Shown: piece after piece, positions 34,587 through 39,271 of the stretch
Numbering within the stretch: the first letter of the stretch is position 1
How the letters are laid out: each line of letters opens with the position of its first letter
DNA from: Candidatus Sericytochromatia bacterium
GTDB lineage: Bacteria; Cyanobacteriota; Sericytochromatia; S15B-MN24; VGJW01
Assembly (NCBI GenBank): GCA_035285865.1
Contig: JAYKHS010000028.1
Coordinates: 96,001-160,000 of the forward strand
Direction: 5' to 3'
DNA: 64,000 nt
Program-made: the position numbers and the translations under genes
The notes under the pieces: generated by a model
Told to the model about the DNA's origin: nothing
Seen by the model: the letters and a program-made list of their open reading frames with translations, nothing else
The model's database searches: none

Positions 34587-37500
34587 ATGCATCTCGGAGA
34601 CGTGCTGAGCAAGAACCGCACCTTGCGCCGGGCGCACGCAGGCAAGCGCGTCTTCATTCTGGGCAACGGTCCTTCCCTGAAGGGTCAGGATCTGACCTTG
34701 TTGCGCGACGAGATCGTCATCGCCTGCAACTCCTTCTTTCATCACCCCGACCTGCGCACGGTCGCGCCGGCCTACTGGATGGCCGCGGATCCCCAGTATT
34801 GGGAGAATCCGCAAGGCACCCTGTTGCCTTTGCTACTCCGATTGAGGGAGGCAGGTGTGGCAACCCGCCTGTTCCTGCCTTCCGGGGCCCTCTCGGCTTG
34901 CCAGCAGTTAAATCCTGGACCTACTGTCTCCTTCCATCATTTCCACTATGACTACGCGGTCGAGGACCCAGTTGAGATCGATTTCTCGCGACCGGTGCCT
35001 CCGTATGGGCAGAATGTCATTTGCACGGCCATCATGCTGGCACTGCACTTGGGTGCGCATCCGATTCATCTTCTTGGCTGCGACCATACGTGGTGGGGCT
35101 ACACCGAGGACATGTACGCCCAGTCGAAACACGAGCATTTCTACGGTGGGAATGGCCCGACCATCCAGTCCTTCATGGGCTTTGCGCAGTTGCAGCAAAC
35201 CATCGTCGTTCAGCGCCGCCAGTATGAGCTCCTGCTCGCCTATGCCAGCGAGCGGGGAACGGCAATTCTGAACGCCACCGACGGTGGTTTGCTCGATGTG
35301 TTTCCGCGCGTGCGTTATGAAGACCTCTTCCCTGCCCCGCAGACCCCCGAGTTCTCTCCGGCCCGACTGGCCGCGGCTGGCGTCCGTGCGCTCGGGGTCG
35401 GAGATATCGAGGGTGCCGTTGCGCTGCTGGAGCGCGCACGAGAGTCGGGCGTGGGCCACATTGCTCGTGTTCCAGCCATAGACCTTGCACTGGCCGTGGC
35501 TCTGGCTCGCCTCGGACATGTCGAGGATGCACGTGCGCGGCTTCGGGGAGTGCTGATGGCGGATCCGCAGCTTGCGGGACGCGCGCGATGTTTGATTGCC
35601 GCTCTTGAGAGAGACGATTGGGCCGCACTGCCCGTTGCCGCAGAACTGCAGGCATGGATGTTTCCGGAGAGAGATGCCTTGCAGGTTGCCCGTCAGGTGT
35701 CCGTGCTCGAGCGCATCGGGGAGCAACGGTTTGAGGCCGGGGATGCCGAGGGTGCCCGGCAGGCCTTCGAGGAGGCCCTTGCACTGAAGCCCGAGTCGGC
35801 CTCGCTCCACAATAACTTGGCTGTTCTTTCGTGGCAGCGGGGCGAGACGGCGCGTGCGATTGATTCCTTTGCACGGGCCTTGGCTCTGGACCCGGAAGAT
35901 CCCCAGACCGTGCTCAATGCGGCGGCCGTTCATTTGGAACGGGGCGCGTTGCTGGACGCTCTGGCGGTTTGCGATGCATTCCTCGCTCGGGTGCCGAGTC
36001 ACGCCGAGGTCCGAGCGATGCGCGATGAGGTGGCAGCTCGGGTTGGGGGGGGGCAGGCCGCGCTCTTCCCGGCTGCCTCGGTCCACGGCTGTATTGTCGC
36101 CCATCTCGAGCAGGATCCCGGGAAAACGGCATTCTGGCTGAGGGAGGGCGGGCGATGGGTGGCGTGGTCCCGCGGGGACTTTCTCTCCCTGGTCTCTCGT
36201 CATGCCGCGCGCTTCTCGGCCCGATTGGAACCAGGGTCTCTGGTGCTCTTCGTGAAGCGTCTGGACGTGGATCTGCTGGCGGCCTATGTGGGGGCGATGT
36301 GGGCGGGCATGGTGCCGGCCCAGCTCAGCCCGCAGACACGAAAGACCACGCCGGAGGAGTATGCGCGCAAGTTCAAGCACATTCTCGACCTTACGGGCGC
36401 GCGGGGCATCTTCACGGATGAAGCCGACGCAGGCCTTCTTCCGCCTGGACCGGAGGTGTTCACTCCGGGAGCCGCAGGCGATGTGTCCCCGGCACCTCTG
36501 GTGGAGGGTTCTGGCGTTGCCCTCGTCCAGTTCAGTTCGGGTTCGACAGGTTTGCAGAAGGGCGTTGCGCTGACCCACGAAGGTATCCTTGCCCACATGC
36601 AGGCCTATGCCCAGGCGCTGTGCCTGGACCCTGCGGATCGTCTCGTCAGCTGGCTGCCGCTCTATCACGACATGGGCCTTGTTGCCTGTTATCTACTGCC
36701 CTTGATGGCGGGTGTTCCCTTCCTCCAGATGGACCCCTTCGACTGGATCATGCGGCCGGACCTACTGCTGGAGGCCATCGAGGGGCACCAGGCCACGCTG
36801 TGCTTCCTGCCGAACTTCGCGTATCACGTGCTGGAGCGAAAGGGCAAGGAACGGGACCTGAGCTCGGTTCGTGCGTTCGTGAATTGCTCGGAGCCTGCCC
36901 GGCCGGACACGCACGACCGCTTCCTCGCTCGCTTCCCTTCGGTGGCGCCGGGTGCCCTGACCGTCTGCTATGCGTTGGCCGAGAACACCTTCGCCGTGGC
37001 GCAGACGGTGCCCGGCGCGCCCGCGAAGCGACGGACGCTCGCGGGCAAGGAGCTGCTGTCCTGCGGGTCCGTCCTTCCGGGTACCGAGGTGCGGATCCTC
37101 GAGCCGGATGCCGAGGGGGTCGGGGAGATCGGCATCAAGGGAGCCTGTCTCTTCGCGCACTTCCTCGGGGGCGAGGCACCCATGGCGGGCGACTTCTACC
37201 GTACGGGAGACCTGGGCTTCCTCGCTCCGGATGGCGAGCTCTACGTGACGGGACGCCACAAGGATCTGATCATCTGCAACGGCAAGAACATCTACCCGCA
37301 GGATGTGGAGCATGTGGCCTCTGCCGTGCCGGGTGTCTATCCTGGCCGAGTCGTTGCGTTCGGGGTCGAGCAGGCCGAGGTCGGCAGTGAGGAACTGATT
37401 GTCGTGGTCGAGCGGGACGGTTCGGTCGCGGATCAGGCCTTGAGACTTGCCGTGCAGCGCGCCGTCGAGGATGAGGTGGGCATCCTGCCGCGGCGCGTCG

Positions 37501-37601: not shown

Positions 37602-39271
37602 TCATCGTCGGCAACAGCCATGTCTCGGTATTCTCGGGCGGCTGCCAGCTTCGAGGCCAGCCGGCCCTGCCCGTTGCGGTCCATTGGGTGGGGGCGCTCG
37701 AGATTGAGCACTTCTACCGGGACCATCCGGCCGCCGGCAAGGTCCGGAAGTTGCTGGCCTCCGAGCGGGACCGGCTCTTCCTGATGATGGGCAACCACGA
37801 CATTTTCCGTCTCTGCGTCCTTGCCGGTCGCCACGGGCGCGAGGCCGCTCTTGCCCATGTGCTGCAGCGCTACCGGGAGGTTTTCAGCGAGCTGTCGGCC
37901 GACGGCAAGCTGGTCTGGCTTGTGGGGCCGCAGCAGGCAGACAACGTGGCCATCCCCGGCATGGGGCCGCAGGAGATTCTGGCCATCGCCCGGGAGTTCG
38001 TGGATAAGCTTGGCGGGTGGTGTGAGGCCAACGGCATTCCCGTCATCGATCCGGTTCCGGGGATTTCCGGTCCCGACGGCCGTCCCGAGCGCCGGTGGCT
38101 GCAGGCCGACGGACTGCATCTCAAGGCTTCTGCCGCACGGTTCTACTTCGATGCCGTCCGCGAGCGACTGGGGTTGGAGCTCGAGACGCGGCACGAGACC
38201 AATCTTGCATTCGAACCTCTGGACGAGCATGAGTCCTTCTGTTCGCTGGTCCTGCAGGGGCTGGACCTGCCGCCGGAGCGCCGTTCCGGGACGGTCGAGG
38301 ATCTGCGCGGACGCGTCTTGGCCTTCGCTACCGCGCGGCTGGAGGATCGGGGCATCGCGTTCGATCTGGGGCTGGACACCGACTTCGTCGATGCGGGGCT
38401 GTTCGACTCGCTTGATCTGGTCGAGATGTATGCGCATGCCACGGAAGTGCTGGGTCTGGATCTTGATTTCGATGTTTCACTTCGGAAGCTCGAGACCCTG
38501 AGCAAGTTGTGCGGTTATCTGGAAGCCCGGACCGCAGCAATCGACCCAGACGAGCCGGTCTTGGCCGACTTCATCCAGTCGATGCGTGGGGAGGCCGACG
38601 ACTCGCTCACCCGCGAGGCGGATGCGCGCATTGCCCGGATGGGGGCGGCGCGCGCGGAGATGTTGCTCGAGGCCGTGACGACAGCCGGGGGCCTCGGCGT
38701 TTACGGCATGCCGCTGTGCTGGCTCGCTCTTGCCTATGATGAGCTGGGGCGCACGGCAGAGGCAGGGCATCTGCTGCGGCAGGCCGTGCAGCCAAGCCTT
38801 CGGTTTCCGGTCCCCGAGGCACGCGCCCGGGCTATCCGGACCGGTCGGGATATTGTGGGCGAGTCCGGTGTCGTGGCCGTGGCGTCAGGCGCGGCCGCCG
38901 TGCTTCCGGATGCGCGTGCCCGCAACGTGTTGGCGGACGATGCCGATCCGGCACTGCTCGAGCGATGGCTTCGCGTCTACCTCTCCAGCTTCTCTCCGGT
39001 CGACGATGTTGCCCTTCATGTGTTTGTCGACGCCGACGAACATAAAGTCGCGGCCCTTGGCCAGTGGATCCTGGACATCGCGGGAACCGCTGCGGAAGCG
39101 ATGGCCGACGTGGTCTTGCACGTGGGCCAACCCGTCGGTGCCCAGATCCAAGCTGCCGATCTCGTCCTTGGCGTGGGACCCATCGCCAGCCTTGCCCGGT
39201 CTCTCGGATGTCCCGTTCGCCCGGTTCCAACCAGTCTCTGGTTTACCGACTCGGACGAATCATCGTCCTGA
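37598..39271 (+). CDS. Fusion: SGNH hydrolase/acyltransferase + acyl carrier protein + helical/TPR segment + GT-like C-terminal domain
   Basis: IVGNSH, GNHD, DGLH (SGNH blocks I/III/V); DTDFVDAGLFDSLDLVEM (phosphopantetheine Ser at ~38408); ATGA overlap with upstream gene. Confidence 0.8.
   Translation: MIIVGNSHVSVFSGGCQLRGQPALPVAVHWVGALEIEHFYRDHPAAGKVRKLLASERDRLFLMMGNHDIFRLCVLAGRHGREAALAHVLQRYREVFSELSADGKLVWLVGPQQADNVAIPGMGPQEILAIAREFVDKLGGWCEANGIPVIDPVPGISGPDGRPERRWLQADGLHLKASAARFYFDAVRERLGLELETRHETNLAFEPLDEHESFCSLVLQGLDLPPERRSGTVEDLRGRVLAFATARLEDRGIAFDLGLDTDFVDAGLFDSLDLVEMYAHATEVLGLDLDFDVSLRKLETLSKLCGYLEARTAAIDPDEPVLADFIQSMRGEADDSLTREADARIARMGAARAEMLLEAVTTAGGLGVYGMPLCWLALAYDELGRTAEAGHLLRQAVQPSLRFPVPEARARAIRTGRDIVGESGVVAVASGAAAVLPDARARNVLADDADPALLERWLRVYLSSFSPVDDVALHVFVDADEHKVAALGQWILDIAGTAAEAMADVVLHVGQPVGAQIQAADLVLGVGPIASLARSLGCPVRPVPTSLWFTDSDESSS

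Follow-up and report, generated by a model that had tools for sequence, protein, structure and literature searches.

What does a bacterium do with a gene pair that joins a Maf-type glycan-transferase fold to the parts of a candidate carrier-protein acylation machine? We examined this question in a 64,000-nucleotide stretch of a Candidatus Sericytochromatia genome (assembly GCA_035285865.1, contig JAYKHS010000028.1, positions 96,001 to 160,000; the window, hereafter, is this whole stretch), where two open reading frames (ORF1 and ORF2) are the last genes of an operon for nonulosonates, which are sialic-acid-like sugars. The pair, which we call the module, probably serves the cytoplasmic, carrier-dependent acylation of a nonulosonate-containing glycan, probably on flagellin and probably with a short carboxylic acid. 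Its parts are the following, numbered within the window.

34587 to 37601, plus strand: ORF1, ATG start, encoding protein 1 (1004 residues), with a Maf/DUF115-fold domain, tetratricopeptide repeats (TPRs) and a FAAL-like adenylation (A) domain
34587 to 35336, plus strand: DUF115/Maf-fold (GT42-like) domain, predicted CMP-nonulosonate transferase
35337 to 36050, plus strand: TPR region
36075 to 37598, plus strand: FAAL-like A domain, coenzyme A (CoA)-rejecting elements kept, FAAL-specific insertion absent
37598 to 39271, plus strand: ORF2, encoding protein 2 (557 residues), coupled to ORF1 through an ATGA overlap
37598 to 38182, plus strand: SGNH-fold domain, with Ser7, Asp171 and His174, and His67 in block III
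38291 to 38536, plus strand: carrier domain resembling acyl or peptidyl carrier proteins (ACP/PCP-like), Ser271 codon at 38408-38410
38537 to 38872, plus strand: helical, TPR-like segment
38873 to 39268, plus strand: tail of about 125 residues

The two coupled ORFs closing the operon are present as described by an earlier reading of these letters alone (the sequence-only reading); those of its motifs that we located sit where it placed them, including the carrier serine codon, and Pfam and predicted folds bear out the main domains of both proteins. An AGGAG lies just 5′ of the ORF1 ATG at 34587, the frame being additionally open from a TTG at 34503, and GC content at third codon positions (0.75 for ORF1, 0.77 for ORF2) is in line with the remaining operon. 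Assembly error as the source of the protein 1 fusion is ruled out, because P0008/L100 carries the identical fusion at 67% identity. One sequencing-run contig covers 33000-41000 with zero differences and may itself be the window's source, and the ATGA overlap is unchanged in one sequencing-run piece of another study; among the pieces listed from other sequencing runs, none bridges the TPR-to-A junction. Promoter and terminator scans gave nothing exceeding chance.

A relay from A domain to carrier to SGNH domain is well supported, because the genes are linked in 26 of 26 loci, a sister family joins the same domains in single chains and the catalytic residues are conserved. The linkage comes from a metagenome scan on the A domain, which gave 63 loci, 27 of them with a full family A domain (>670 bits). 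The SGNH gene directly follows A in all 26 that have downstream DNA, a count from which fragment L151, assigned partly by its neighbour, was excluded; it does likewise elsewhere (G019, G008, a Nitrospirota genome). The L103 protein and a near-copy of L122 were among the sequences from which the profile used was made. In the sister family, at least seven proteins (P0200, P0202, P0213, P0111, P0126, L060, L148) hold A, SGNH and carrier domains in one chain, with an SGNH domain homologous to that of protein 2 (HHalign probability 98.9, E 3e-17). A third arrangement was also seen in glycosyltransferase-rich loci (L133, L136, L145-L147, L149, L152, L154, L158-L161), in which an N-terminal SGNH-like domain is fused to a short A domain, often followed by a small ACP; homology between this SGNH domain and that of protein 2 went undetected (probability 1.8), and a viral origin of the third family is unsupported, since plasmids and viral contigs gave no match.

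Residues 1-314 of protein 2 were modelled as an SGNH fold plus a carrier domain (predicted local distance difference test, pLDDT, 88.9), the former with structural matches up to Z 14.8 (root-mean-square deviation, rmsd, 3.2, 171 aligned) and a weak GDSL_2 match in Pfam (E 2e-4). The ACP of the sequence-only reading is supported by a PP-binding match above cut-off (PF00550, residues 256-308, 24.4 bits against 20.8) and a PigG-like fold (7thn_E, Z 10.5, rmsd 2.3, 78 aligned). Both Ser7, Gly32 (block II), Asp171 and His174 of the SGNH domain and Asp270-Ser271-Leu272 of the carrier show no variation in any of the 24 aligned loci; across 51 rows of wider, more distant representatives the triad columns are conserved in 47, 48 and 48. 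Canonical SGNH block III is G-x-N-D with an oxyanion Asn. Here that Asn is absent: the conserved residue is His67 (45 of 51 rows), not Asn66, and the preceding position is variable, so that the motif reading stands for the triad but not for the third block. Since the catalytic serine is already residue 7, there is no room for a signal peptide and protein 2 lacks one. The helical segment is present, with weak TPR matches (E 0.02-0.3), whereas the proposed glycosyltransferase-like character of the tail was not borne out: it has no Pfam match even at E<=1, has local profile matches, and is a conserved segment kept in some relatives, with GT2 domains coming after it in certain cases. Elsewhere, L186 and L169, two short contigs of G103, carry five tandem SGNH-carrier paralogues with a changed block III.

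Could the SGNH domain instead be a hydrolase, acting as a thioesterase to release or edit an acid that had been tailored while on the carrier, or stripping O-acyl groups from the nonulosonate? Its closest structural matches are mostly hydrolases, among them GDSL esterases, sialate O-acetylesterase and thioesterase I, and methyltransferases able to tailor a tethered acid are common in module loci. The transferases PatB (Z 13.3) and OatA (Z 12.7), however, fall in the same score band as the hydrolases, and the site differs from typical esterases because His replaces the usual oxyanion Asn. Loading an acid only to hydrolyse it would also presumably waste ATP, and the SGNH-carrier head is fused to glycosyltransferases, GT2 in nine of 15 relatives scanned and in some also GT4 and methyltransferase domains. 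We therefore regard a hydrolase as unlikely.

The sequence-only reading had called the N-terminal domain of protein 1 Maf-type. Pfam PF01973 matches residues 13-168 with E 1.6e-6, under its curated cut-off. The model (pLDDT 92.9) has Maf as top match in both fold searches (5MU5, Z 14.9, rmsd 3.9, 201 aligned, over 5MU5 residues 261-512 only), followed lower down by HPPK/MptE (Z 11.4) and CstI (Z 11.2). An initial DUF115 profile search was dominated by A-domain matches; redone with a 21-sequence profile of this domain, it matched CstII over positions 22-170 (about 150 positions, E 8e-6), with further matches to HPPK/MptE (30 positions, E 1e-3) and to Maf 5MU5 (E 0.07). In Mafs, two acidic residues are described as essential (324 and 415 in 5MU5, 272 and 357 in CbMaf), with a catalytic Ser 23 residues ahead of the second (CbMaf S334, GkMaf S356; bioRxiv 2020.06.03.131540). 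Asp68 (20 of 21) and Asp166 (21 of 21) resemble this pair in spacing, a comparison of spacing and not of residue-level alignment to Maf; mapped provisionally in the same way, the Ser position would be residue 143, an Asn in 19 of 21 sequences and a Thr in the other two. Protein 1 starts at the equivalent of 5MU5 residue ~261, so the Maf N-terminal region of about 260 residues has no counterpart. The domain is Maf-like, comprising only the Maf catalytic core, and it likely works like a Maf or GT42 transferase. Its fold fits and its acidic residues resemble those of Mafs in spacing, but the Ser position seems to be Asn or Thr, and we do not file it as a Maf. The TPRs that follow are matched by Pfam, the first unit being common to 17 aligned split or TPR-fused relatives and the second present only in the window and four others. 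A DUF115 domain with a C-terminal TPR is also the layout of Shewanella Maf-1, whose TPR is reported to bind flagellin (bioRxiv 2023.12.03.569772).

How conserved is the joining of this domain to the acylation machinery? Together with the 27 metagenome loci, the window, G019, G008, L020 and L151 make a family set of 32, or 28 after collapse at 95% identity. DUF115 precedes A in 22 of the 28, fused in six and as a separate adjacent gene in 16, so fusion is optional, and the notion that the fusion itself is the conserved unit is ruled out. In an 83-row quick tree (Shimodaira-Hasegawa-like approximate likelihood-ratio test, midpoint root) the family A domains group together with 100% support. The fusion shared by the window and L100 is placed in this midpoint-rooted tree among split loci, away from the other fused group, suggesting that fusion occurred more than once. 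In L100, the module is followed (8790-12770) by an integrase, a second adenylation enzyme, a pyridoxal-phosphate decarboxylase and a small ACP-like ORF.

These data bear on a second alternative, that the relay is real and the Maf-fold domain is employed otherwise, as an MptE-like kinase or as a transferase for lipopolysaccharide, capsule or S-layer glycans, leaving flagellin uninvolved and the fusion incidental. MptE/HPPK is indeed the second structural match, only six of 28 loci are fused, the window is distant from flagellar genes, and the Maf N-terminal region is absent with the Maf Ser position seemingly altered. Yet Maf outscores it structurally, the CstII profile match is some five times as long as that to HPPK, the domain stays beside A in most loci, and its layout with a C-terminal TPR is that of the reportedly flagellin-binding Shewanella Maf-1; we judge this alternative quite unlikely.

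The A domain is not in doubt as an adenylation domain (AMP-binding in Pfam, residues 506-857, E 1e-45), and its best matches are FAALs (3PBK, E 4e-46), although every NCBIfam FAAL score lies far under its cut-off. Trp689, Pro691, Met696 and Phe744 correspond to EcFAAL W224, P226, M231 and F279 and do not vary among the 26 aligned members, and the FAAL-specific helix motif is retained at residues 716-724; these are CoA-rejecting elements as described in PMC8460268, which reports that the helix and the pocket residues matter more than the insertion for keeping CoA out. That insertion is absent: marker spacing is 72-76 residues against ~98-103 in most wider-family proteins, with a gap relative to 3PBK, and the domain is about 26 residues shorter than the wider family across this region. 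The adenylation domain of the sequence-only reading is confirmed, with the CoA-rejecting residues and helix kept and the insertion lacking. Three solved FAALs carry Gly, Gly and Leu at the positions of Cys767, Ala796 and Phe802, which are invariant here in 26 of 26; these substitutions suggest a tighter pocket and hence, perhaps, a smaller acid. An ordinary long-chain FAAL lipidating the glycan into a glycolipid or lipid anchor would fit the best family and PDB matches, which are long-chain FAALs, and the proposal that fatty-acid genes of enterobacterial flagellin islands lipoylate glycans (PMC4875605), but is very unlikely given the scores, the missing insertion and the apparently tighter pocket.

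We return to carrier-dependent acylation of a nonulosonate-containing glycan, for which four steps can be envisaged. A host phosphopantetheinyl transferase, possibly a divergent enzyme encoded on another contig (C11) of the same genome, would prime Ser271, and the A domain would then very probably load its acid onto this carrier and not onto CoA. The SGNH domain, which shares its chain with the carrier, would likely accept the acyl group on Ser7 and hand it to a sugar hydroxyl or, less likely, an amine. The Maf-fold domain would, with good probability, transfer the operon's CMP-nonulosonate, either ahead of acylation or following it. Whether the final acceptor is flagellin, reached directly or through an oligosaccharide built by GT2/GT4-TPR enzymes, we consider an even bet. 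Domain identity, residue conservation, gene linkage and fusions were observed directly, and from them we infer the acid, the acceptor and the flagellin target. The idea that an acid is activated, tethered on the ACP and transferred by the SGNH domain is thereby strengthened as far as linkage, sister fusions and conserved residues reach, while the chemistry, like any binding of a target by the TPRs, stays at the level of prediction. The best reading of the relay is one that resembles the Dlt pathway without its membrane acyltransferase.

The genomic context speaks for this scheme. NeuB is present in nine of the 28 loci, NeuB or a CMP-synthetase-like gene in 16 and sugar-pathway genes in 21, several contigs being short; among the matches listed, neither NeuB nor DUF115 occurs in any of 79 wider-family control loci, of which 32 show a small ACP-like match and one the sister fusion. 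The link to nonulosonate loci is borne out. Flagellar genes accompany the module in six of 28 loci (L014, L020, L104, L109, L116, L123), or six of the 14 with at least 3 kb downstream, and G019 has the order DUF115-TPR, A, SGNH-carrier-GT2-TPR, GT2-TPR, flagellin, FliD. In the window's own genome a GT2-TPR gene adjoins the flagellin gene on contig C16.

Besides the hydrolase-like structural neighbours and the seemingly altered Maf Ser position already described, several observations weigh against this interpretation. The carrier Ser column in the 51 distant rows reads 38 Ser, 5 Thr, 1 Lys and 7 gaps. DUF115 was undetected in six of 28 loci; two of these begin where their contig does, whereas L111 and L119, at least, lack it despite plenty of sequence upstream. 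Flagellar genes are missing from eight of the 14 loci that extend at least 3 kb downstream, and half of the six flagellar loci (L020, L109, L123) are closely related to one another. The window operon is not beside flagellar genes either, the flagellin genes of its genome being on C22 and C16 and none near the window. Finally, a PF01648 search of the window's genome found no phosphopantetheinyl transferase; the candidate on C11 is a divergent orthologue with the motifs of such transferases, and it reaches 12 bits against a Pfam cut-off of 25.

The operon upstream of the module includes a second cassette.

20537 to 34469, plus strand: upstream sugar operon, with LegB, nucleotidyltransferase, radical SAM, epimerase, NeuB, cytidylyltransferase, PseG-like, WbqC and PIG-L genes, then the second cassette
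29303 to 34469, plus strand: second cassette, with a second cytidylyltransferase, oxidoreductase, DegT aminotransferase, GT-B-like ORF and methyltransferase

LegB matches TIGR04180 above cut-off; PseG-like and GT-B-like are labels given by reading, without curated matches. The PseG-like gene (25880-26863) has no ATG, GTG or TTG at the homologous start, where a CTG at 25880, preceded by GGAGG, lines up with the Met of its L020 homologue and is a probable non-standard start. A methyltransferase gene (27591-28502, minus strand) separates WbqC from PIG-L, two genes that are neighbours in relatives, and GC content falls to 0.56 at 28001-30000. The second cassette stands 5′ of the module in the window and six other loci; its oxidation and transamination could put an amine on the sugar, a possible N-acyl acceptor. 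Directly 3′ of the operon is a proline-rich LysM and C39 peptidase gene (39391-40890), and the window further holds motA/motB stator genes (1749-3437) and a carbonic anhydrase/CcmM-like hexapeptide protein (52534-53928).

How widespread is the module? Searched against 1.84 billion representatives, the SGNH-carrier profile gave 50 clusters at E<=1e-30, a number that rises to 65 at E<=1e-10. It was found in five of 401 genomes sampled from the window's phylum, two of 401 from that of the Nitrospirota genome and none of seven other genomes of the window's taxonomic family. Among the 80 loci listed from a genome-collection scan at least one is a family member, which is not a count of the family, and all members found come from metagenomes or genome bins. 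With 28 non-redundant loci the module is a small, patchy and rare family. Variants occur at its margins. In G036, one contig (L018, C475) ends with WbqC, PIG-L, DUF115, a methyltransferase and the start of FkbH, and another (L167, C627) opens with the remainder of an FkbH-like gene, followed by a small ACP-like ORF and an SGNH gene; on these two unjoined contigs FkbH may replace the adenylation loader. The same genome encodes, adjoining a LegB cluster (L019:7916-11830), a 1305-residue protein with adenylation, ACP-like, SGNH-like (motifs by eye) and GT1-type parts.

How does this compare with known systems? DltD, like the acyltransferase domain proposed here, has an SGNH-like fold, and Vibrio AlmEFG acylates lipid A through a different transferase fold. 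The module's logic is closest to DltABCD and to SGNH O-acetylation by the Alg and Wss systems, minus the membrane step. In DltABCD, an adenylation enzyme charges a phosphopantetheinylated carrier, from which the acyl group finally reaches a surface glycopolymer (PMC8892547). The module would follow this pattern but would keep carrier and SGNH domain on one chain without a signal peptide, with a FAAL-like loader and an attached Maf-fold transferase. No MBOAT match was found among the window operon genes or the downstream ORFs scanned, relatives' upstream ORFs having been scanned in part. AlgI/AlgJ/AlgX, WssH/I/F, PatB and OatA share SGNH-fold acyltransferases with a Ser-His-Asp triad and glycan substrates (PMC8892547), but theirs are extracytoplasmic and fed across the membrane, whereas the module, by prediction, works in the cytoplasm with acyl groups supplied from its own carrier. 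With the Mafs of M. magneticum (5MU5) and S. oneidensis (Maf-1) it has in common the catalytic fold, a nonulosonate operon and, going by spacing, apparently the two acidic residues, and with Maf-1 the C-terminal TPR; it differs in lacking the N-terminal region, in its seemingly replaced Ser and in being fused or coupled to an acylation module. FAALs such as EcFAAL (3PBK) provide the best sequence matches, the same CoA-rejecting residues and helix and a dedicated neighbouring carrier partner, but have the insertion, smaller pocket residues and a polyketide or peptide rather than glycan context. Enterobacterial flagellin islands (ACP, LuxE, CoA-ligase) likewise place a carrier-linked acyl supply beside flagellin glycosylation genes, using stand-alone ACPs and FAS-type enzymes and not an SGNH-carrier didomain (PMC4875605).

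A literature search covering titles, abstract openings and few subscription journals gave no paper describing the module, and the main text of a FAAL survey (PMC12820801) contains none of the words 'SGNH', 'glycosyl' or 'saccharide'. The module is real and rare, and appears to be a hitherto undescribed variant of carrier-dependent glycan acylation. More tentatively, a membrane-free SGNH-carrier head fed by an insertion-less FAAL-type loader could esterify the nonulosonate in Maf-type protein O-glycosylation, a possible new route of flagellin-glycan acylation, with a head that would be portable on glycosyltransferase arrays of up to 3,400 residues and might work with alternative loaders, FkbH among them.

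Sugars of the pseudaminic and legionaminic type carry a great variety of acyl groups, and the enzymes that add the non-acetyl ones are poorly known. The resemblance of the logic to Dlt sets a limit here; the module nevertheless offers a compact, soluble, two-protein candidate for nonulosonate acylation and would add a FAAL-like clade without the diagnostic insertion. If the proposal is true, carrier-dependent SGNH transfer would extend from the cell envelope to the cytoplasm.

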